The notes under the pieces were generated by a model that did not search any database, was not told the DNA's origin, and saw nothing but the letters and a program-made list of their open reading frames with translations. Source: a virus (taxonomy: Duplodnaviria > Heunggongvirae > Uroviricota > Caudoviricetes). Taken from it: DNA of 34,209 bases. Below, in pieces: positions 18,023-32,841 of this stretch. The number at the start of each line of letters is the position of its first letter. The stretch's first letter is position 1. Position numbers and translations under genes: made by a program. The stretch lies in the IMG/VR virus record IMGVR_UViG_2648501321_000004; one strand, written 5' to 3'.

Positions 18023-19075
18023 TTATTTCCCCACCAGCTCGTTTATCTCTTTCACTGTCTGGTTAAACCGCTCTGACTCAAGCTCAACACCTAAGGCCCG
18101 ACGCCCCAGCGCCATTGCTGCTTTTATTGTGGAACCGGATCCCATAAAAAAATCAGCAACCAGATCACCAGGTCGACTACTGGCATTGATTATTTGCCTG
18201 AGCATATCCGCCGGTTTCTCACACGGATGTTTACCCGGGTAGAACTGAACGGGTTTATGCATCCAGACATCGGTATAAGGCACGGAGACTGATACGGAGA
18301 AATAGCGCCGGAGAGATTTAAACTCATCCAGCAATTCAGAATATTTGCGATTCAGTGAATCATAAGATGCCACCAGCTGGTGGTGTGGTTGTTCCAGTTG
18401 TTGTTCCTGAAACTTCTCTGCCGCTATACGGGAAAACAGTGCCTGTAACTTCCGATAGTCAGCCTCATTCGGCAACTGCCACTGACTGGCACCAAACCAG
18501 TGGGAAACCATATTTTTCTTACCTGTGGCTTCGGCAATTTGTTTTGCCGTTATACCCAGTTCGGCACGAGCATCCCTGAAATACGATATCAGCGGTGCCA
18601 TTATGTGCTGTTTGAGTTCCCTTTCTTTTGCCGCATAGCCGTCACTTTTGCCGCGATATGGCCCCTGGTAATGTTCAGCAAACAGAACGCGCTCTGTGGC
18701 AGGAAAATATGCGCGCAGACTTTCTTTATTACACCCATTCCAACGTCCGGACGGCTTCGCCCAGATGATATGGTTAAGCACGTTGAAACGTTCACGCATC
18801 ATGATCTCAATATCAGATGCCAGGCGATGCCCACAGAACAGGTAAAGGCTTCCGGCAGGTTTTAACACCCGCCAGAACTGGGCCAGACAGTGGTCCAGCC
18901 ACTTAAGGTAATCTTCGTCCCCTTTCCACTGATTGTCCCAGCCGTTGGGTTTCACCTTGAAGTACGGCGGATCGGTAACAATCAGGTCAATGGAATCATC
19001 AGGCAGGGACTGAATAAAATGCAGGCAATCAGCGTTGATTAAATCAACACTGTTTATTTTTACAGTATTTTTCAT
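18023..19075 (-). CDS. DNA N6-adenine methyltransferase (DPPY motif), orphan
   Basis: 350 aa with a DPPY catalytic motif (LIVTDPPYF) and SAM-binding-like segments; no adjacent restriction endonuclease gene. Confidence 0.8.
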
Positions 19076-19224
19076 GGATCAGTAAGCGTAACTCTGGTAG
19101 GCTCACTCTGCTTTTGCGCTAAAGCAGTGGGCCGTGGTTCGCTTGTGACCAGTAAGCATGAGCGAATGGCTGGCAGGTGCTACCAACACCCACCAGCCGC
19201 CCATTTTCACAAATTAAAAGTCCT

Positions 19225-19443
19225 TCATAGCTGAAGGCGTCTGTAACAGCCGAACTGGTAATCTGCCAGCCCCGCCATAACCAACTGGGTCAGTATTAAC
19301 TGACAGCGTTCGCGTGAAAGATATGTGTTTTGTGCAATCTCCCCGACTGTTGCCGGTTCGATGCTTAATTCATTAAAAACAACTTTCGCCGTTTCTGTCA
19401 TATCTTGCTGTTTTAGCATGTCTTTTTTCCTTCTGGTTAACAT
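19225..19443 (-). CDS. Small hypothetical protein, possibly winged-helix DNA-binding
   Basis: 72-aa ORF at the head of the late operon; start uncertain (ATGs at 19443, 19419, 19401). A hairpin CCTTCA-TAGC-TGAAGG overlaps its stop. Confidence 0.4.
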   Translation of the reverse strand: MLTRRKKDMLKQQDMTETAKVVFNELSIEPATVGEIAQNTYLSRERCQLILTQLVMAGLADYQFGCYRRLQL

Positions 19444-19540
19444 GACATACCAATAACTCTTGTCTAAAAAGCCAGCAAGATAAAAAGCCAGTATTCACGA
19501 CCACCAGCGTGTTTACTGTACTGCACAAGGTTTACAGGTA

Positions 19541-19563
19541 CAAAAAAACCGCTCAGCGGCGGG
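19541..19563 (-). terminator. Candidate tR-prime-like terminator at the start of the late operon
   Basis: Minus strand reads CCCGCCGCTGAGCGG followed by TTTTTTT; short GC stem, so marginal. Confidence 0.35.
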
Positions 19564-19684
19564 TTTAAGTTGTGTGGCGAAGTAACCACTCTTAACACGA
19601 TATAATACTTTTTGCGTACGCGTTAGGATTTTTATAAACTATGCGTCCCCATTCTCGCTATCTTTAGTCGGTCCTGGAATACAC

Positions 19685-20611
19685 ATGAAAGTTAGAAGCA
19701 TAGGATTTACAATAAATAACAATAACAAAAATATTAATACCGTTGACGTAATGAATGCTTTTATCAACGCATCAAACAGAGAACACAGTCGCACAGACTA
19801 TACTCGTAAAATTCTCATTTCGGATGTGAATGATTTCTATTATGGATTAGTTGTCACATTCAGAAACCAAAAAAAGAACTGTAAGTCGCAATTTGTTGAT
19901 GGTAAATTCCAGCTTAAAATTGAAGATCTTCAAGGAAGTGACAAACTTGCTAATTTCAACTTTTTCTTAATTAAAAAATCTAATCTTTCTGGTCTCTATA
20001 TGTATCACCACGGTTCATGCAGTCTGAACACTCTCTTTTCTCATTTAGAAACAATAAGTAATGAATTTATCAGAAATCAAAATAAAGAAGAAATAAAAAA
20101 ACTTGGTGATAAACCAAAACAAAAAGAAGTAACTGCAATAAATAAAAAATACAAAGAAAGACTGACTTTCAGCCTTATGACAAATAAAAACAACATTCAG
20201 AGTGTTTTATGTCAATTCAAAGAGATTAAAAGCACAAGCTTTAAATTTAATTATATAGATTTTAAAGGTGGACCAATGACTGCGCTTGAACAATTTGTTA
20301 ACACCACCACAATAGATATGAATTTTAATTCTAGCGACAGAACAAAAGTGCAACAACTATCTCAGAATCTTTCAAATATTTATAATTCTATGAGTGGAGT
20401 TACTAAAGCACAGGTTATTGCAGTAAACCATGCAGGAATAGAAAAAACCATTGATTTTATGAACTGCCCTGTTTTTTTTGAAACATACGATTTCGATATA
20501 ATTGCCGATAAAGTCAATGGATTGACAAACGATAATTATACAACAAACTCTGTTTTTGATATGATAAAAGAAGAAATGCTGAACGGGACGAATAAAAATG
20601 CCTTTATATGA
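19685..20611 (+). CDS. Cassette gene A: 308-aa soluble Asn/Lys-rich protein of unknown function (candidate sensor/effector of a defence-like module)
   Basis: Long ORF in a strongly AT-rich island on the strand opposite all flanking phage genes; no TM segment; no family recognised. Confidence 0.7.
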   Translation: MKVRSIGFTINNNNKNINTVDVMNAFINASNREHSRTDYTRKILISDVNDFYYGLVVTFRNQKKNCKSQFVDGKFQLKIEDLQGSDKLANFNFFLIKKSNLSGLYMYHHGSCSLNTLFSHLETISNEFIRNQNKEEIKKLGDKPKQKEVTAINKKYKERLTFSLMTNKNNIQSVLCQFKEIKSTSFKFNYIDFKGGPMTALEQFVNTTTIDMNFNSSDRTKVQQLSQNLSNIYNSMSGVTKAQVIAVNHAGIEKTIDFMNCPVFFETYDFDIIADKVNGLTNDNYTTNSVFDMIKEEMLNGTNKNAFI

Positions 20612-21146
20612 ATGGCTAATAAATAAAAGATTGAGGTATCAGTACCTTACACTGCTTGCATTCTCGATCCTGGCATTGCTTGCACTTTACCTATTGTACA
20701 GAAACACACCTAAAGTAAGTGTTAACTTTTTTGATTTTTATCATAAAAACTTACGAGGCTATCTCTTCTCCGGTTTTATTTCCGTGGGCTCATTTTTATT
20801 GAGCCTGCATACCTTTGTCATAATAAATTTACGCGATAAGGTTTTTGCAACTCAGGAATATAAGGAAATTTATAGCATTGCCACTGGTATACCTATTGAC
20901 AAAATCAATGATAGTGTACTTTATAAACCTTTAGACAATTTATCCTCATTTATTAATACATCAATATTATGTTCTATCACAACAGCAATTGCACAATTCA
21001 CTATTGGACTTTCAACTAATTTATATGCATGCTTATTTTGCGTATGGCTTGCAATACTAACGGTATTTCTTTTATTACATTGCCTCATCATAATCAGACA
21101 AAATATTAAAATCTTATTAAAGCAACAGAGAAAAAAAGGGGGGTAA
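20598..21146 (+). CDS. Cassette gene B: 182-aa integral membrane protein with about four TM helices (candidate membrane effector)
   Basis: Hydrophobic segments YLTLLAFSILALLALYLLY, LFSGFISVGSFLLSLHTFVIINL, ILCSITTAIAQFTIGL and LYACLFCVWLAILTVFLLLHCLIII; start overlaps the gene A stop by 14 nt. Confidence 0.7.
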   Translation: MPLYEWLINKRLRYQYLTLLAFSILALLALYLLYRNTPKVSVNFFDFYHKNLRGYLFSGFISVGSFLLSLHTFVIINLRDKVFATQEYKEIYSIATGIPIDKINDSVLYKPLDNLSSFINTSILCSITTAIAQFTIGLSTNLYACLFCVWLAILTVFLLLHCLIIIRQNIKILLKQQRKKGG

Positions 21147-25196: not shown

Positions 25197-26138
25197 TCAC
25201 CCCCTGAATCCTGCCGGGATCTGGCTGTAGTCCACGTTGTCGTAACTGGCTTTGAAGTACGGGTCTTCACGTTTTTCTGTGTGCGTGCTGACGGACGGCG
25301 ATAAGCGCAGGGAAAGCTCATCCCATTTTTCCCGCAACTTCGACGGGCTGAGCACGTTACGGCACCAGAACGGATCGCGGCTGACGCGGCTGTACATCTC
25401 GCAGATTTGTTTGTGAGTACGACCATCCTGCACACACATCAGGCGAATTTCGTTTGCCCATGCTGTCCAGTTCGGTTCTTTGGGACGAACCACCTCGCCG
25501 TCACATTCGGCGGCCTGCTCGTACAGGGCAATGATTTTTTTCCAGAGCCACTGTGCGCAGGTCAAATCATCCTGCGTTCCCCACTGGCGCTTTTTAGGGC
25601 TGAATACAACCGCATCAGGATGGCGAGTTAAAAAATCCTGTTCAGCCGTCTGCGTGTCCGGTTGCGAAGCGTCCGGACGAGAAGGTTTTTTATCTGACGG
25701 ATCATGTTTTGATTTTACTGACGGATCCCCGCCAGATTCTGACGGGTGAAAACCCGCTTTTTTGCCAGATTTCGACGCATCAAATTTTGACGTGTCAGAT
25801 TTTGATGCGTCAGATTTTGACGGGTCAGAATCTGACAGTTGAGAAAATGCCGCTGCCTGAAGCTTCGCAACGTTAAGCTGATAAACATTCGACGCATTGC
25901 GGTTACCCTGGCGACGCGCCTTACGCGTTAACCAGCCTTCTGCTTCCAGCCGTGCGATAGCCGTTCTGACGGTACTCATCCCCGCGCCAATCTGACGGGC
26001 AATAGTTTCAATTGATGGCCAGCACACACCTTCGTCATTACTGAAATCAGCCAGGCGGGCCATAATTGCCACGCTGGATAATTTCATGCCTGACGCAGCG
26101 CAACCATCCCATACATAGCCGGTTAATTTAGTGCTCAT
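25197..26138 (-). CDS. Replication initiation protein (O-like, N-terminal HTH) containing internal iterons
   Basis: 313 aa with an N-terminal HTH-like region and a central SDPSKSDASKSDTSKFDASKSG repeat encoded by the iteron array; GAGGT Shine-Dalgarno. Confidence 0.7.
   Translation of the reverse strand: MSTKLTGYVWDGCAASGMKLSSVAIMARLADFSNDEGVCWPSIETIARQIGAGMSTVRTAIARLEAEGWLTRKARRQGNRNASNVYQLNVAKLQAAAFSQLSDSDPSKSDASKSDTSKFDASKSGKKAGFHPSESGGDPSVKSKHDPSDKKPSRPDASQPDTQTAEQDFLTRHPDAVVFSPKKRQWGTQDDLTCAQWLWKKIIALYEQAAECDGEVVRPKEPNWTAWANEIRLMCVQDGRTHKQICEMYSRVSRDPFWCRNVLSPSKLREKWDELSLRLSPSVSTHTEKREDPYFKASYDNVDYSQIPAGFRG
25686..25841. repeat. Iteron array, about 8 direct copies of a 15-bp unit (consensus AGATTTTGACGNGTC); candidate replication origin
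   Basis: Four exactly 15-bp-periodic copies at 25767..25826 flanked by degenerate copies; lies inside the replication gene as lambda ori lies inside O. Confidence 0.65.
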
Positions 26139-27293: not shown

Positions 27294-27390
27294 ATTACCT
27301 CCACATATTGCGTGATAAGCATATTATTTCACGCAAATATTTTGCGCAAGTTGATTTGCTTAACGCGCAATAAAGAAATGTAATAAACGC
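27294..27390. promoter_or_regulatory. OR-like operator/promoter region between cro and cI (pR, pRM)
   Basis: Repeated palindromic TTGCG(T/C)...CGCAA half-sites; pR-like -35 TTGCGC and -10 TAATAT on the minus strand; cI ATG has no Shine-Dalgarno, consistent with a leaderless pRM transcript. Confidence 0.6.
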
Positions 27391-28083
27391 ATGAACATAG
27401 GAAACCGAGTCAGACAACTTCGCCAGGCGAAGAACATGAAAATCGCCGATCTCGCTGAAGCAATAGGAGTGGATGCGGCGAATATCTCACGCCTGGAAAC
27501 AGGTAAGCAGAAACAATTCACTGAACAAGCCCTGAGTAATATTGCCAGGAGCTTAGGTGTTGATATTGCTGATCTCTTTACCTCAGACGTCAAAAGTAAT
27601 ACTGTATGTAAAAACAGTATTAGTGAGGATGTTGCGCAGGTGAAGGATGTATTCCGTATTGAAATGCTGGATGTCAGTGCCAGTGCGGGAAATGGCCTTA
27701 TCCAGGGCGGTGATGTCATTGATGTGATTCATGCCATTGAATACAGAACTGATAATGCTGTATCGATGTTTGGCGGACGGCCAGCCAATCACATTAAAGT
27801 TATCAACGTTCGTGGGGACAGTATGTGTCCAACCATTGAGCCAGGAGATCTCATCTTCGTTGATGTCAGTATCAATCAGTTTGATGGAGATGGTATCTAT
27901 GTATTTGGTTTTGATGATAAAATTTATGTCAAACGACTGCAAATGATACCTGACAAACTACTGGTGATTTCTGATAACCAGATTTACCGTGAATGGGGAA
28001 TTACCAGCGAAAATGAACACCGGTTTATGGTCTTTGGAAAGGTCTTAATCAGCCAGTCACAAACCCTTAAGCGACACAATTAA
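27391..28083 (+). CDS. cI: CI-type prophage repressor (HTH plus S24 LexA-like peptidase domain)
   Basis: N-terminal HTH (MKIADLAEAIGVDAANISRLETGKQ) and C-terminal autocleavage domain with GDSM serine motif and VKR lysine motif. Confidence 0.9.
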   Translation: MNIGNRVRQLRQAKNMKIADLAEAIGVDAANISRLETGKQKQFTEQALSNIARSLGVDIADLFTSDVKSNTVCKNSISEDVAQVKDVFRIEMLDVSASAGNGLIQGGDVIDVIHAIEYRTDNAVSMFGGRPANHIKVINVRGDSMCPTIEPGDLIFVDVSINQFDGDGIYVFGFDDKIYVKRLQMIPDKLLVISDNQIYREWGITSENEHRFMVFGKVLISQSQTLKRHN

Positions 28084-28103
28084 CCCTTACCTCCTCATCA
28101 ATT

Positions 28104-28127
28104 AGCCACCCAAAGGTGGCTTTTCAT
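28104..28127 (+). terminator. Rho-independent terminator after cI
   Basis: AGCCACC-CAAA-GGTGGCT hairpin followed by TTTTC. Confidence 0.6.
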
Positions 28128-28135
28128 TACCCTTT

Positions 28136-28200
28136 AAATTGCATATCTCGCAACAAAAACACTTGCATAATACGCAACTTCATTTTATCTTTCTTTCCAG
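28136..28200 (+). promoter_or_regulatory. Candidate OL/pL region
   Basis: Two 15-bp sites TTGCATATCTCGCAA and TTGCATAATACGCAA resembling the OR half-sites; possible -35 TTGCAT and -10 TATCTT. Confidence 0.35.
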
Positions 28201-28602
28201 ACAAACAAACAAGGTACTAACAAAATTTGGTTGTAACACGGCGTATGGCACATGCGTCGTTAGCGGTCTGGGGACGTTAAAGGGGACAATCCACTCCTTG
28301 CTCGGGCAAACAAACCAGGTAGCCGGAATGTGCAAGTCAATGATGATGCTGATAAGACGCCTAACCAGCGTGGCGATTCGGTTTGACGCCTGGGAAGAGA
28401 CCAGGGTGCAACGATGAGGGCATTTATGGAGCCGCGACAAAGTGTGGTGCCGTAACTGGCTAAGTGCTCTCAGCGTTGTGGTAATCCGCGAAATGGCGCG
28501 GCGGTAAGTATGGCGGGGTTACTATTTCCCCGTTGAGGACACCGGATTGTCAGGTTGACCATACGCCTGAGTGACAACCCCACCACAACAGCCACTGCTT
28601 TG

Positions 28603-28648
28603 GCGGTACCAGTTTGTACCCTTGCTTCCGGCTGGTACCGCTCTTTTT
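28603..28648 (+). terminator. Strong hairpin plus T-run inside the non-coding leader upstream of the early-left operon
   Basis: Perfect 10-bp stem GCGGTACCAG/CTGGTACCGC with a 19-nt loop followed by TCTTTTT; overlaps a boxA-like CGCTCTTTTTAC. Confidence 0.5.
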
Positions 28649-28785
28649 ACAAAACAGAGAAAAGCATCACCGGACGACGGGCTCATAACCCAATCCATCC
28701 GGGCGGCAGTCACCGCAGGTGTTCTTCTCTGTTTTGTGGAGAAACCAACCGACCTTGCAGGGTCGATATGATGAGGAGCAGCAAA

Positions 28786-29148
28786 ATGGCTAGCGAACGC
28801 AGTACTGATGTGCAGGCATTTATCGGGGAGCTGGACGGCGGCGTATTTGAAACCAAAATCGGCGCAGTTCTCAGTGAAGTCGCTTCAGGTGTGATGAACA
28901 CGAAAACCAAAGGTAAGGTCTCACTCAACCTGGAAATCGAACCATTTGATGAGAACCGTGTGAAAATCAAACACAAACTCTCATATGTTCGCCCGACTAA
29001 CCGCGGGAAAATTTCCGAAGAAGACACCACCGAAACGCCGATGTATGTCAATCGCGGTGGTCGCCTGACTATTCTGCAGGAAGACCAGGGACAATTACTG
29101 ACTCTTGCCGGTGAACCTGACGGAAAACTCCGCGCAGCAGGTCATTAA
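28786..29148 (+). CDS. yfdP: YfdP-like hypothetical protein (120 aa)
   Basis: ATG at 28786 with AGGAG upstream; first of five co-oriented genes whose lengths (120, 274, 178, 120, 101 aa) match the CPS-53 yfdP-yfdT series as recalled. Confidence 0.55.
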   Translation: MASERSTDVQAFIGELDGGVFETKIGAVLSEVASGVMNTKTKGKVSLNLEIEPFDENRVKIKHKLSYVRPTNRGKISEEDTTETPMYVNRGGRLTILQEDQGQLLTLAGEPDGKLRAAGH

Positions 29149-29213
29149 TATCGTTCTTAATTAACCGATTATTTATCTCATCACTGAATATCTTTATATA
29201 GTGAGGACTTATT

Positions 29214-30038
29214 ATGTCTCAGAACTTAGACGCAACCGCAATTAATCAAATCCATGCCCTTATTTCTGCTCAGGGTGTTAATGAAATTATCAGTAAGATT
29301 GGTGCCGATGCTGTGGCATTGCCTGAGAATTTCCGCATTCATGATCTGGAAAAATTTAATTTAAATCGCTTCCGTTTCCGTGGTGCGCTTTCCACTGCCA
29401 GCATCGATGACTTTACCCGTTATTCTAAAGATCTTGCAGATGAAGGCACCCGCTGCTTTATCGATGCCGATAATATGCGAGCAGTCAGTGTGCTTAACCT
29501 GGGTACTATTGATGAACCAGGTCACGCAGATAACACCGCCACTCTCAAACTGAAAAAGACAGCACCGTTCTCTGCCCTGTTGTCTGTTAACAGCGAGCGT
29601 AACTCCCAGAAGTCACTGGCAGAATGGATTGAAGACTGGGCCGACTACCTTGTGGGCTTTGATGCTAATGGTGACGCTATTCAGGCAACAAAAGCGGCTG
29701 CGGCGGTCCGTAAAATCACGATTGAAGCAAACCAGACCGCTGATTTTGAAGATAATGACTTCAGCGGCAAACGCTCCCTGATGGAGTCTGTCGAAGCGAA
29801 GACCAAAGATATTATGCCAGTGGCATTTGAATTTAAATGCGTTCCGTTTGAAGGTCTGAAAGAACGTCCATTTAAATTACGCCTCAGCATTATCACTGGC
29901 GATCGTCCGGTACTGGTTCTGCGCATTATTCAGCTGGAAGCGGTGCAGGAAGATATGGCTAACGAATTTCGTGATCTGTTTGTTGAGAAATTCAAAGACA
30001 GCAAAGTAGAAACCTTTATTGGTACTTTCACCGCCTGA
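29214..30038 (+). CDS. yfdQ: YfdQ-like protein (DUF2303 family, 274 aa)
   Basis: 274-aa ORF with GAGGA Shine-Dalgarno; size and neighbourhood match YfdQ. Confidence 0.65.
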
Positions 30039-30166
30039 TTTCATTACTGCAAATGCCCCTGCGGGGGCATTTATGGAAACGTAATTGACTCAATAATCGC
30101 CGGATGGTGCGGGATTCCTTTTACCCGAATTCAGCGCGGTGCAGCGCATATAAAGTGGAGAACGAA

Positions 30167-30703
30167 ATGTCATTTATTAAAACTTTTTCCGGGAAGCATT
30201 TTTATTATGACAAGATAAATAAAGACGACATCGTTATTAACGATATCGCGGTTTCCCTTTCAAATATCTGTCGCTTTGCAGGACATCTTTCACACTTCTA
30301 CAGCGTCGCCCAACATGCGGTTCTTTGCAGCCAGCTGGTGCCGCATGAATTTGCTTTTGAAGCGTTAATGCATGATGCAACAGAAGCGTATTGCCAGGAC
30401 ATTCCCGCACCACTGAAACGACTTCTTCCTGACTATAAACGGATGGAAGAAAAAATAGACGCCGTAATCCGTGAGAAATACGGGTTACCTCCTGTTATGA
30501 GCACGCCAGTGAAATATGCCGATCTCATTATGCTGGCAACCGAACGCCGCGATCTCGGGCTTGATGATGGCTCTTTCTGGCCTGTGCTGGAAGGTATCCC
30601 GGCAACAGAGATGTTCAACGTGATTCCACTGGCTCCAGGCCATGCCTACGGGATGTTTATGGAACGCTTTAACGAATTATCGGAGTTACGCAAATGCGCA
30701 TGA
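30167..30703 (+). CDS. yfdR: HD-domain phosphohydrolase (YfdR-like 5-prime-deoxynucleotidase, 178 aa)
   Basis: HD-domain residues visible (VAQHAV..., ALMHDATEAYCQD); GTGGAG Shine-Dalgarno 6 nt before the ATG at 30167. Confidence 0.7.
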   Translation: MSFIKTFSGKHFYYDKINKDDIVINDIAVSLSNICRFAGHLSHFYSVAQHAVLCSQLVPHEFAFEALMHDATEAYCQDIPAPLKRLLPDYKRMEEKIDAVIREKYGLPPVMSTPVKYADLIMLATERRDLGLDDGSFWPVLEGIPATEMFNVIPLAPGHAYGMFMERFNELSELRKCA

Positions 30704-31056
30704 ATGTTTTCGAAATGGAAGGGTTTCTTCGTGGGAGATGTGTACCGCGAGATCTGAAAGTGAATGAAACGGATGCTGAATACCTGGTGCGTAAATTCGA
30801 TGCGCTTGAAGCTAAATGTGCAGCACAGGAAAACAAAGTAATACCAGTGTCAACTGAACTGCCACCAGCAAATGAAAGTGTTTTGTTATTCGATGCTAAC
30901 GGAGAAGGCTGGCTAATTGGCTGGCGTTCTCTCTGGTACACCTGGGGACAAAAAGAAACCGGAGAATGGCAGTGGACATTTCAGGTCGGGGACCTTGAAA
31001 ACGTCAATATCACTCACTGGGCAGTAATGCCAAAAGCACCGGAGGCTGGAGCATAA
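30694..31056 (+). CDS. yfdS: YfdS-like hypothetical protein (120 aa)
   Basis: Overlaps the yfdR stop by 10 nt; GGAG Shine-Dalgarno. Confidence 0.55.
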   Translation: MRMNVFEMEGFLRGRCVPRDLKVNETDAEYLVRKFDALEAKCAAQENKVIPVSTELPPANESVLLFDANGEGWLIGWRSLWYTWGQKETGEWQWTFQVGDLENVNITHWAVMPKAPEAGA

Positions 31057-31361
31057 TGACCACTTTTACCGACAAAGAACTGATTAAAGAAATTAAAGAA
31101 CGTATCAGCAGCCTTGACGTGCGAGACGATATTGAGCGCCGTGCTTATGAAATCGCACTCCTATCTCTGGAAGTAGAACCAGATGAACGCGAAGCTTATG
31201 AATTATTCATGGAAAAGCGTTTTGGTGACTTAGTAGATCGTCGGAGAGCAAAAAACGGCGATAACGAATACATGGCATGGGATATGACTCTCGGTTGGAT
31301 CGTCTGGCAGCAACGAGCTGGTATCCATTTCTCAACAATGTCACAGCAAGAGGTGAAATAA
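31056..31361 (+). CDS. yfdT: YfdT-like hypothetical protein (101 aa)
   Basis: Start overlaps the yfdS stop (TAATG); GGAG upstream. Confidence 0.55.
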   Translation: MTTFTDKELIKEIKERISSLDVRDDIERRAYEIALLSLEVEPDEREAYELFMEKRFGDLVDRRRAKNGDNEYMAWDMTLGWIVWQQRAGIHFSTMSQQEVK

Positions 31362-31711
31362 TGGAGCCATACAGCCTCACACTCGATGAGGCCTGTCATT
31401 TTCTCAAGATATCCAGACCGACTGCCATTAACTGGATACGCACAGGGCGTCTTCAGGCAACACGCAAAGATCCCACTAAGAATAAATCTCCTTACCTCAC
31501 AACACGACAAGCCTGCATTGCGGCTCTTCAGTCTCCGCTGCATACTGTCCAGGTGAGCGCGGGTGATGGCATAACAGAGGAAAGAAAATGTCACTCTTCC
31601 GCAGAGGTGAAATATGGTACGCCAGTTTCACATTGCCGAACGGTAAAAGATTTAAACAGTCTCTTGGAACAAAGGACAAAAGGCAGGCGACAGAACTCCA
31701 TGACAAGCTAA
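31361..31711 (+). CDS. xis: Excisionase (P22 Xis-like, 116 aa)
   Basis: 116-aa ORF ([31 protein letters not shown]...) immediately upstream of and overlapping int; start overlaps the yfdT stop (TAATG). Confidence 0.65.
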
Positions 31712-32751
31712 AGGCTGAAGCATGGCGGGTCAGCAAACTTGGTGAAATACCTGATATAACGTTCGAGGAAGCGTGTGTCAGGTGGCTTGAAGAGAAAGCA
31801 CATAAAAAATCACTGGACGATGACAAAAGCCGGATCGGATTCTGGCTTCAACATTTCGCAGGAATGCAACTAAGAGACATTACTGAATCAAAAATTTATT
31901 CAGCAATGCAGAAAATGACGAACCGGCGTCATGAGGAAAACTGGAAACTCAGGGCAGAAGCATGCAGAAAAAAAGGGAAACCTGTTCCAGAATACACGCC
32001 AAAACCAGCGTCCGTTGCAACGAAGGCTACGCATCTTTCATTTATAAAGGCCCTACTAAGAGCCGCAGAGCGTGAATGGAAAATGCTGGATAAGGCACCA
32101 ATTATTAAAGTGCCTCAACCAAAGAATAAACGGATCCGCTGGCTGGAGCCCCATGAAGCACAAAGGCTGATTGATGAATGTCCGGAGCCATTAAAGTCTG
32201 TTGTTGAATTTGCACTGGCAACAGGCTTAAGACGCTCGAACATCATCAACCTTGAATGGCAACAAATAGATATGCAGCGCCGGGTGGCATGGATAAACCC
32301 GGAAGAGAGTAAATCAAACCGCGCAATCGGCGTTGCGCTGAATGATACTGCATGTCGCGTTTTGAAAAAACAAATCGGGAATCATCACCGTTGGGTATTT
32401 GTGTACAAGGAAAGCTGTACCAAACCAGACGGAACGAAAGCGCCAACAGTAAGGAAGATGCGGTATGACGCAAACACAGCCTGGAAAGCGGCGCTGAGAC
32501 GGGCTGGTATTGATGATTTCAGATTTCACGACTTGAGACACACCTGGGCAAGTTGGCTGGTTCAAGCCGGAGTCCCGTTGTCAGTGTTACAGGAAATGGG
32601 AGGCTGGGAGTCTATCGAAATGGTTCGTCGATATGCTCACCTTGCACCTAATCACCTTACCGAACACGCACGGCAAATAGACTCGATCCTGAACCCATCG
32701 GTCCCAAATTTGTCCCAGTCAAAAAATAAGGAAGGTACTAATGATGTGTAA
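31588..32751 (+). CDS. int: Tyrosine integrase (P22 Int type)
   Basis: 387 aa with catalytic-region motifs ([15 protein letters not shown]..., EMVRRYAHL); ends 14 nt from the tRNA. Confidence 0.9.
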
Positions 32752-32765
32752 CTTATTGATTTAAA

Positions 32766-32841
32766 TGGTGCCGATAATAGGAGTCGAACCTACGACCTTC
32801 GCATTACGAATGCGCTGCTCTACCAACTGAGCTATATCGGC
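32766..32841 (-). tRNA. thrW: tRNA-Thr (anticodon CGU), thrW-like; prophage attachment site
   Basis: Minus strand reads GCCGATATAGCTCAGTTGGTAGAGCAGCGCATTCGTAATGCGAAGGTCGTAGGTTCGACTCCTATTATCGGCACCA: 76 nt cloverleaf with CGT anticodon, GTTCGA T-loop and CCA end. Confidence 0.9.

Follow-up and report, generated by a model that had tools for sequence, protein, structure and literature searches.

What function is served by five co-oriented genes that stand between the immunity region of a prophage and its excision and integration genes is the question raised by the 34,209-nucleotide (nt) window analyzed here (IMG/VR record IMGVR_UViG_2648501321_000004, a virus of the Caudoviricetes). On the plus strand these genes are yfdP (28786-29148; 120 amino acids), the upstream partner of yfdQ; yfdQ (29214-30038; 274 amino acids; DUF2303, Pfam PF10065); yfdR (30167-30703; 178 amino acids), encoding an HD-domain phosphohydrolase; yfdS (30694-31056; 120 amino acids), with a C-terminal DUF551 and a mosaic N-terminus; and yfdT (31056-31361; 101 amino acids), without a defined domain. 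They form the named, widespread and partly characterized cluster yfdPQRST, which is found here as an accessory module in a lambdoid prophage that looks complete, has an early-left/int arm of the SfV type and is integrated at thrW. The likeliest function of the cluster, to which we give an even chance of being the right one, is the redirection of host DNA replication and deoxynucleotide metabolism to the phage.

Identity and distribution of the gene cluster

A first-pass annotation, made from the letters of the window, had recognized five co-oriented genes of the lengths of the yfdP-yfdT set in the Escherichia coli K-12 element CPS-53, and had left the relationship to be settled by sequence comparison. 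That identification is correct, though not new, because the genes already have names and have been studied in part: the lengths equal those in K-12, and far from being unrelated the encoded proteins are 96-99% identical to their K-12 counterparts (YfdP 99.2%, YfdQ 98.9%, YfdR 98.9%, YfdS 95.8%, YfdT 96.0%, all by amino acids). At the DNA level the match to K-12 spans positions 28767-31414 of the window at 96.8% identity, and on the 99.9%-identical DNA of E. coli AF16 RefSeq lists yfdP, yfdQ, yfdR (5'-deoxynucleotidase), yfdS and yfdT. Of 5426 complete E. coli genomes 3919 (72%) contain similar DNA, as do 176 phage records, including SfV, SfIV, mEp460, cdtI and many Stx2-converting phages.

Two of the known copies frame the comparison. 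CPS-53 (KpLE1) shares all five genes in the same order, but it sits at argW as a decayed remnant that has no cI and whose integrase and recombination directionality factor (intS, torI) are different ones; upstream of its yfdP stands a yfdO/yfdP spacer with SrsR boxes rather than the leader described below, and homology to the window starts 19 nt before the yfdP ATG. The orf32-orf28 genes of the Shigella flexneri phages SfV and SfIV likewise lie between cI and xis/int beside an integrase of the same type with thrW/proA attachment, and are preceded by the same leader from window position 28601 onward. Their proteins are 97-100% identical to those encoded here (for SfV, 100% for YfdP, YfdS and YfdT, 98.2% for YfdQ and 97.2% for YfdR, by amino acids). 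SfV differs in its immunity region, an extra orf33, and the gtr O-antigen genes.

The genes had also been described as tightly coupled, which is accurate for only part of the cluster: yfdR and yfdS overlap by 10 nt and yfdS and yfdT by 1 nt, but 65 nt separate yfdP from yfdQ and 128 nt, with a stable hairpin, separate yfdQ from yfdR. This 9-bp perfect hairpin (AAATGCCCC-TGCG-GGGGCATTT; 30051-30072, plus strand) stands directly 3' of the yfdQ stop codon, has a folding energy of -17 kcal/mol (z-score -3.05) and lacks a U-run. Judged from its sequence and place, it may split yfdPQ from yfdRST in expression or stabilize the yfdPQ message, and it fits the listing of yfdPQ as an operon of its own in K-12, where this operon is controlled by the stationary-phase regulator SrsR according to the paper on that regulator. 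For yfdR a longer alternative open reading frame (ORF) starts at 30104; a GGAG stands 7 nt before the ATG at 30167.

Proposed redirection of host replication and deoxynucleotide metabolism

The strongest indications of function come from the K-12 genes. Noguchi and Katayama (2016) found yfdQRST as a multicopy suppressor of hda-185 over-initiation (PMC4776307). In multicopy the minimal set of yfdQ together with yfdR and one of the two genes yfdS and yfdT inhibits initiation at oriC, additional copies have this effect in the wild type and in several regulatory mutants, and extracts with an excess of the four proteins inhibit oriC replication in vitro (PMC4776307). K-12 YfdR binds DnaA domain I via Phe46, competing with DiaA and DnaB, and is a weak HD-domain 5'-deoxynucleotidase (PMC4776307). 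The earlier statement that none of the five genes has an established phage role stands as far as the phage cycle is concerned, for which we found no described role, but it overlooks the K-12 data on YfdR-DnaA binding and the block at oriC. Our literature search on YfdQ, DUF2303, YfdP, YfdS, YfdT and DUF551 returned only the 2016 DnaA paper, a 2025 survey of lambdoid phages, the SrsR paper and papers on Ea22.

Proteins that bind DnaA and block chromosomal initiation have precedents in lambda P, Bacillus subtilis SirA and E. coli Dps (PMC4776307). SirA and Dps use DnaA domain I, as YfdR does, and SirA depends on the phenylalanine equivalent to Phe46, whereas lambda P binds DnaA domain III (PMC4776307). 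None of the three is related to YfdR in sequence or fold; YfdR is an HD hydrolase, and in vivo it needs YfdQ together with YfdS or YfdT.

The assignment of the third gene to the HD-domain phosphohydrolases, made in the first-pass annotation, is confirmed by an HD motif that aligns with those of the E. coli 5'-deoxynucleotidase YfbR and of the HD protein in PDB entry 2gz4 (1.3e-13, with the HD residues aligned). YfdR matches phrog_318, 'deoxyribonucleoside 5' monophosphate phosphatase', at 4e-111. The HD...E...D motif of YfbR aligns with H69, D70, E73, D78 and D119 of YfdR, although the two proteins share only 18% identity and YfdR binds DnaA as well (K-12 data, PMC4776307). Scores against the YfbR-like Pfam family PF12917 (23.4 bits, cut-off 25.9) and NCBIfam PRK03826 (19.6 against 122) fall below both curated cut-offs, which makes YfdR a distant relative and not an equivalog of YfbR. 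Of 37 homologues, reaching down to 34% identity, 36-37 retain each of R36, H50, H69, D70, E73, D78 and D119; by this conservation the active site is under selection, and it points to an additional enzymatic role on deoxynucleoside monophosphates (dNMPs). The K-12 protein, 98.9% identical, is reported to bind DnaA and to have 5'-deoxynucleotidase activity; by that likeness the present copy would do the same.

Under this model the cluster would be the first coding block of a CI-repressed early-left unit, made after induction or infection and before xis and int. YfdR produced from the early-left transcript would bind DnaA domain I at Phe46 and so compete with DiaA and DnaB; acting jointly with YfdQ and one of the proteins YfdS and YfdT, it would stop new initiations at oriC, while the O-like initiator of the phage would keep working, and its HD site would act additionally on deoxynucleotides. 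The presence in the prophage of such an O-like initiator, with iterons, supports the model, and so do the early-left placement described below and the lack of an exo/bet/gam module. For the near-identical K-12 proteins it has been shown that DnaA is bound, that overexpression inhibits initiation and that there is a weak nucleotidase activity; that the same effects arise at natural expression levels in the phage cycle we infer, as we do everything concerning YfdP-YfdQ.

Several observations weigh against this reading. The replication block was seen only with multicopy plasmids, initiation showed no phenotype when yfdQRST was deleted, and an overexpression artefact is a possibility that the authors themselves concede (PMC4776307). 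YfdQ, YfdS and YfdT did not co-purify with YfdR or DnaA, and yfdP is dispensable for the effect (PMC4776307), yet it is always linked to yfdQ. In the work of Zimmerman et al. (2008), as cited in that paper, YfdR is a structural homologue of YfbR with much lower nucleotide affinities (PMC4776307). The literature search brought up no experiment with a viable phage that carries the module. Among 66 genome loci from gamma- and betaproteobacteria, each encoding a YfdQ relative, yfdP-yfdQ occurs without yfdR in 29, and it does so too in phages of Pseudomonas, Vibrio, Xanthomonas and Acinetobacter; the general function of the pair therefore cannot be to inhibit E. coli DnaA. Replication takeover leaves both the inseparability of yfdP and yfdQ and their yfdR-less occurrence in phages of distant hosts unexplained. 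It does not, however, exclude the readings considered below (recombination, lysogen fitness and anti-defence), since none of the four is incompatible with the others.

An obligate yfdP-yfdQ pair among recombination genes

What was taken for a single operon is a composite of an obligate yfdP-yfdQ pair, the HD enzyme yfdR, and the small mosaic genes yfdS and yfdT. In the 66 loci a YfdP-family gene lies immediately upstream of yfdQ on the same strand wherever this could be assessed (63 of 63), and the same holds in seven of seven diverse phages. A YfdR-type HD gene follows within 3 kilobases in 37 of the 66, and yfdS and yfdT are confined to the E. coli/Shigella loci. A scan of IMG/VR with a YfdQ alignment returned only 99%-identical loci, which are of no use for synteny.

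Prophage loci usually have the order cI, yfdP, yfdQ, (yfdR), ..., int, and the pair is also found in Vibrio, Thalassomonas, Xanthomonas, Pseudomonas and Acinetobacter phages. In Vibrio and Thalassomonas podophages the order is Erf, RecE-like exonuclease, (DnaQ-like exonuclease), YfdP, YfdQ, and in the Vibrio phage an annotated single-stranded DNA-binding protein (SSB) follows. Xanthomonas phage Bolivar has no annotated integrase; there the pair opens an operon and is followed by recombinase, exonuclease and SSB genes; helicases lie near the pair in Vibrio D82 and Acinetobacter fJoAci01.

YfdP matches phrog_204 (1.2e-49 over residues 1-119), and all its homologues carry PF27127, a model missing from the Pfam copy used on the window; its predicted structure, a low-confidence model, has a long helix, a three-stranded sheet and a conserved disordered tail, and gave no fold match. 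YfdQ matches PF10065 over residues 7-272 of 274 (2.6e-91; 306 bits against a cut-off of 26.6) in a family of 1768 clusters at 50% identity, and its model has no significant fold neighbour in a PDB fold library that lacked entry 9o7m. That entry is the only solved relative of YfdQ (E-value 7e-43), with 36 chains named 'YfdQ Protein' whose sequence is 96-99% that of the YfdQ in the Xanthomonas/Xylella phage group of Bolivar and MET23-P3. No publication for 9o7m was found in our literature search. Its being a virion reconstruction or a YfdP-YfdQ complex was also considered: PDB queries with the cognate YfdP, with 19 joined neighbour proteins and with joined virion proteins (capsid, portal, connector, nozzle and others) gave no match among its chains, and since none of those proteins is in the entry both interpretations are unlikely. 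The entry suggests a very large YfdQ homo-oligomer, and YfdP-YfdQ probably forms a large oligomeric assembly that acts on DNA or on replication or recombination proteins. A direct role of this kind is the natural rival of replication takeover, or its complement, though as an account of the cluster we consider it somewhat improbable.

In its specific form the proposal is that YfdP-YfdQ would be a recombination or repair accessory: a large oligomer on DNA ends, single-stranded DNA or host recombination proteins that would aid or protect phage replication intermediates, with YfdR only trimming the dNMP pool and the DnaA effect being a side effect of overexpression. It draws on the position of the pair in the Vibrio and Thalassomonas phages, between a RecE- or DnaQ-like exonuclease and SSB and beside an Erf-type annealing protein, and on the recombinase, exonuclease and SSB genes next to it in Bolivar. 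Deletions of yfdQ and yfdS are sensitive to hydrogen peroxide or methyl methanesulfonate (MMS), with both sensitivities reported for yfdQ, in Wang et al. (2010) and Rooney et al. (2009) as these are cited in the DnaA paper (PMC4776307). Of the same tendency is that the prophage itself lacks an exo/bet/gam module: the interval from cI to xis holds yfdP-T only, none of which matches the Exo, Bet/Erf/Sak4 or Gam/Abc2 families, and this places the prophage in the 'no Rec module' group of the 2025 survey (PMC12315714). More speculatively, the example chain of 9o7m is labelled C, which would fit two non-protein chains, for example DNA strands, in addition to the 36 YfdQ chains.

The two remaining proteins are small and mosaic. 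The DUF551 (PF04448) match of YfdS is borderline (22.2 bits against a cut-off of 22.0; residues 50-117), and its N- and C-terminal halves match different PHROGs; YfdT matches phrog_660 (7e-31), and its N-terminal 50 residues are common to other PHROGs. In being small and mosaic YfdS resembles Ea22 of lambda and Stx phages, likewise a small mosaic early-left protein, whose variant V2 carries DUF551 as does YfdS, but YfdS lacks the Ead/Ea22 coiled-coil region and its own DUF551 match is at threshold.

A covarying leader RNA upstream of yfdP

A leader of about 190 nt (from about 28600) accompanies yfdP regardless of the immunity region. It begins with a GC-rich hairpin (GGCGGTACCAG / CTGGTACCGC) and U-run, terminator-like in its predicted fold (T1; 28602-28648, plus strand), and continues into a structured element found by covariance modelling (28641-28748, plus strand) with a long stem of about 25 bp (28644-28742). 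The 5' arm of this stem takes in the T1 U-run, and the last letters of its 3' arm are UGUGGAGAAAC; close relatives have an invariant GGCUCAUAACCCAAUCC enclosed by the stem. A small predicted hairpin (28750-28765, plus strand) fills the space between the long stem and the ribosome-binding site of yfdP, and most related loci likewise have a GC hairpin there. About half of 22 folded loci have a T1-equivalent GC hairpin and U-run before the long stem, and several further loci keep only the 3' half of T1, GCCGC-N-CUUUUUU. The possibility that CGCUCUUUUUACAA at T1 is a boxA/nut site was rejected, since its CUC core varies in relatives (CCC, CAC, UCC).

A covariance model (R1) built from nine Enterobacteriaceae leader copies gave 19 matches in a first search, namely 18 related loci and the window, all on the plus strand and upstream of yfdP by no more than about 600 nt. 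A second search, of 23 loci that are more distant, gave 19 matches, 18 of them with the same strand and position. The genera reached were Yersinia, Serratia, Providencia, Proteus, Morganella, Xenorhabdus, Rahnella and Sodalis. In this second, independent set each of the 25 pairs in the long stem varies on both sides, with 92% of cells paired, and for the whole leader structure 91.5% of cells are paired against 37-51% with slid partners, counts that are biased by coming from a covariance-model alignment fitted to the model (a MAFFT alignment put the 5' arm out of register). The covariation score is 0.537, compared with no more than 0.128, and none of 500 shuffles reaches it. Despite the alignment bias, the slid control and the consistent position speak for a real stem. 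Plus-strand scores (92-127 bits) far exceed minus-strand scores (25-33 bits) and G.U alternates with G-C pairs, both of which point to an RNA on the coding strand. Against Rfam the whole window had no match at gathering score except a tRNA, and 28084-28800 had no match at E<=1.

The leader may constitute a new cis-regulatory RNA. Our guess, for which the lambda N leader offers the analogy, is an RNase III or translation-control element within a terminator-gated leader. Taken with the pair that it precedes, it raises a further idea, which we put forward tentatively and regard as less probable than not: yfdP-yfdQ and the covarying leader would be a self-contained, widespread cassette of a new type, found in Enterobacterales and in Pseudomonas, Vibrio, Xanthomonas and Acinetobacter phages. 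Its products, of a fold without PDB neighbour, would form a very large homo-oligomer acting on DNA or on the replication or recombination machinery, and the terminator and 25-bp stem would constitute a new cis-regulatory RNA gating expression.

Early-left position in a lambdoid prophage

The window has the look of a complete lambdoid prophage, with terminase, portal, an HK97-type capsid-protease fusion, a lysis cassette, RusA, lambda-like tail genes, J and Lom among them, an O-like initiator that has iterons, a cII-like gene, cro and cI; the lambda-like tail genes and the HK97-type capsid fusion protein distinguish it from SfV. Its lowest G+C content (0.31-0.40, at 19000-21000) coincides, by mapping to AF16, with the holin/endolysin lysis cassette and an adjacent hypothetical gene.

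The early-left placement proposed in the first pass, between the immunity region and xis/int, is borne out by a repressor upstream, an excisionase and an integrase downstream, and a gene order and orientation (cI, yfdP-T, xis, int, all on one strand) that fit such an operon, with operator-like palindromes past cI. The CI-type repressor (27391-28083, plus strand; helix-turn-helix and S24 peptidase) matches Pfam Peptidase_S24 at 6e-19 along with helix-turn-helix families and phrog_4, and a homologous repressor stands upstream of yfdP-yfdQ in 44 of the 66 genome loci. Directly after cI is a terminator-like hairpin with a T-run (28104-28121, plus strand; -11.8 kcal/mol, z-score -4.15), followed by two operator-like palindromes TTGCATANNNCGCAA 24 bp apart (28139-28153 and 28163-28177, together spanning 28139-28177), the candidate left operator oL, which would mark the region of the early-left promoter. 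The same form, TTGC-N7-GCAA, occurs twice in the cI-cro spacer (27308-27322 and 27356-27370). Over the whole window the pattern is not more frequent than expected by chance, so it is placement alone that makes the four palindromes candidate CI operators (the right operator oR in the cI-cro spacer, oL after cI). If the pair at 28139-28177 is read as oL, the five genes would open a CI-repressed early-left unit. A promoter consensus scan of 28084-28785 yielded no candidate that passed.

Between the cI terminator and the leader, 28130-28600 (about 470 nt) has no convincing ORF and is 97-99% conserved in mEp460, cdtI, Ayreon, Stx2c phages and PhiR47_1; SfV differs there, with orf33. The stretch 28190-28785 as a whole folds better than shuffled sequence (z-score -3.3).

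Downstream of the cluster, xis (31277-31711, plus strand) encodes an excisionase-type helix-turn-helix protein (HTH_17 2.9e-8; phrog_2907 1e-50) and is followed by a tyrosine integrase gene (31588-32751, plus strand; Phage_integrase 3e-48). With the 3' end of yfdT the xis ORF shares 85 nt, and with the long integrase ORF it shares 124 nt; the starts of xis and int are set differently in RefSeq and in the SfV record, with the RefSeq int start lying later. The tRNA gene thrW (32769-32841, minus strand; Rfam tRNA 71.8 bits; tRNA-Thr in the identical AF16 context) marks the attachment site beside proA. That the trio of yfdP, yfdQ and an HD gene is common in early-left operons of lambdoid phages was reported in the 2025 survey (PMC12315714).

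The iterons of the prophage, 15-bp repeats of GTCAGATTTTGACG in five to six copies (25763-25845), lie inside a minus-strand replication gene (25197-26138) and presumably form the origin of the phage. The 'SrsR box' TCAGATTTTGC, footprinted in K-12 in the spacer of yfdO and yfdP, matches them, and by this match the strongest SrsR site of K-12 may be a remnant of a phage origin. When the K-12 SrsR boxes were sought upstream of yfdP they were absent, the iterons in the replication gene being the sole matches.

A possible benefit to the lysogen or role in counter-defence

A benefit to the lysogen, by which the cluster expressed from the prophage would raise tolerance of oxidative, acid or DNA-damage stress, for example through slower initiation under stress, is in our view unlikely, and more so than a recombination role. 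Deletion of CPS-53, yfdQ or yfdS increases sensitivity to hydrogen peroxide, as cited in the DnaA paper, and multicopy yfdQRST raises resistance to hydroxyurea (PMC4776307). The K-12 yfdPQ transcript is detectable, under SrsR control, and the cluster has been retained in those 3919 E. coli genomes, even in the decayed CPS-53. The deletion phenotypes are weak, however, and the SrsR boxes of K-12 are missing before yfdP in the present prophage. The genes lie here behind the cI terminator, the operator-like sites and the terminator-like leader hairpin, an arrangement that argues for repression in the lysogen, and yfdP-yfdQ is also carried by a phage without an annotated integrase (Bolivar).

Least probable of all, we think, is the proposal of the first-pass annotation that the cluster is an anti-defence module, with the HD enzyme degrading immune signalling nucleotides or countering nucleotide depletion and the other proteins inhibiting other defences: it is a general experience that early-left accessory regions of temperate phages often hold anti-defence genes and that the HD superfamily includes cyclic-nucleotide phosphodiesterases, and the mosaic, variable character of YfdS and YfdT is one that counter-defence genes often show, but the nearest characterized relatives of YfdR are monophosphate phosphatases (YfbR-like; a dNMP phosphatase by PHROG) rather than cyclic-nucleotide phosphodiesterases, hydrolysis of dNMPs would not relieve depletion of deoxynucleoside triphosphates, no paper linking the five genes to defence systems was found, the five proteins have no PADLOC family match at E<=0.01 (a library that covers defence and not anti-defence proteins), and the invariant yfdP-yfdQ pairing and wide conservation among replication and recombination genes fit a core role in DNA metabolism better.

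Significance for temperate phages of enterobacteria

The yfdPQRST cluster is among the commonest gene sets of E. coli prophages and is also carried by Stx-converting phages and by Shigella serotype-converting phages. Much of what is described here re-identifies an annotated module; the additions are its composite nature, the obligate yfdP-yfdQ pair, the conservation of the YfdR residues, the YfdQ model without a PDB fold neighbour and the covarying leader. The pair and its conserved leader RNA are the parts from which something new could still be learned. If shutdown of host initiation through DnaA is true, temperate phages would have a second route, distinct from that of lambda P, to silence the host chromosome, and the cluster would be a natural source of inhibitors of DnaA domain I.

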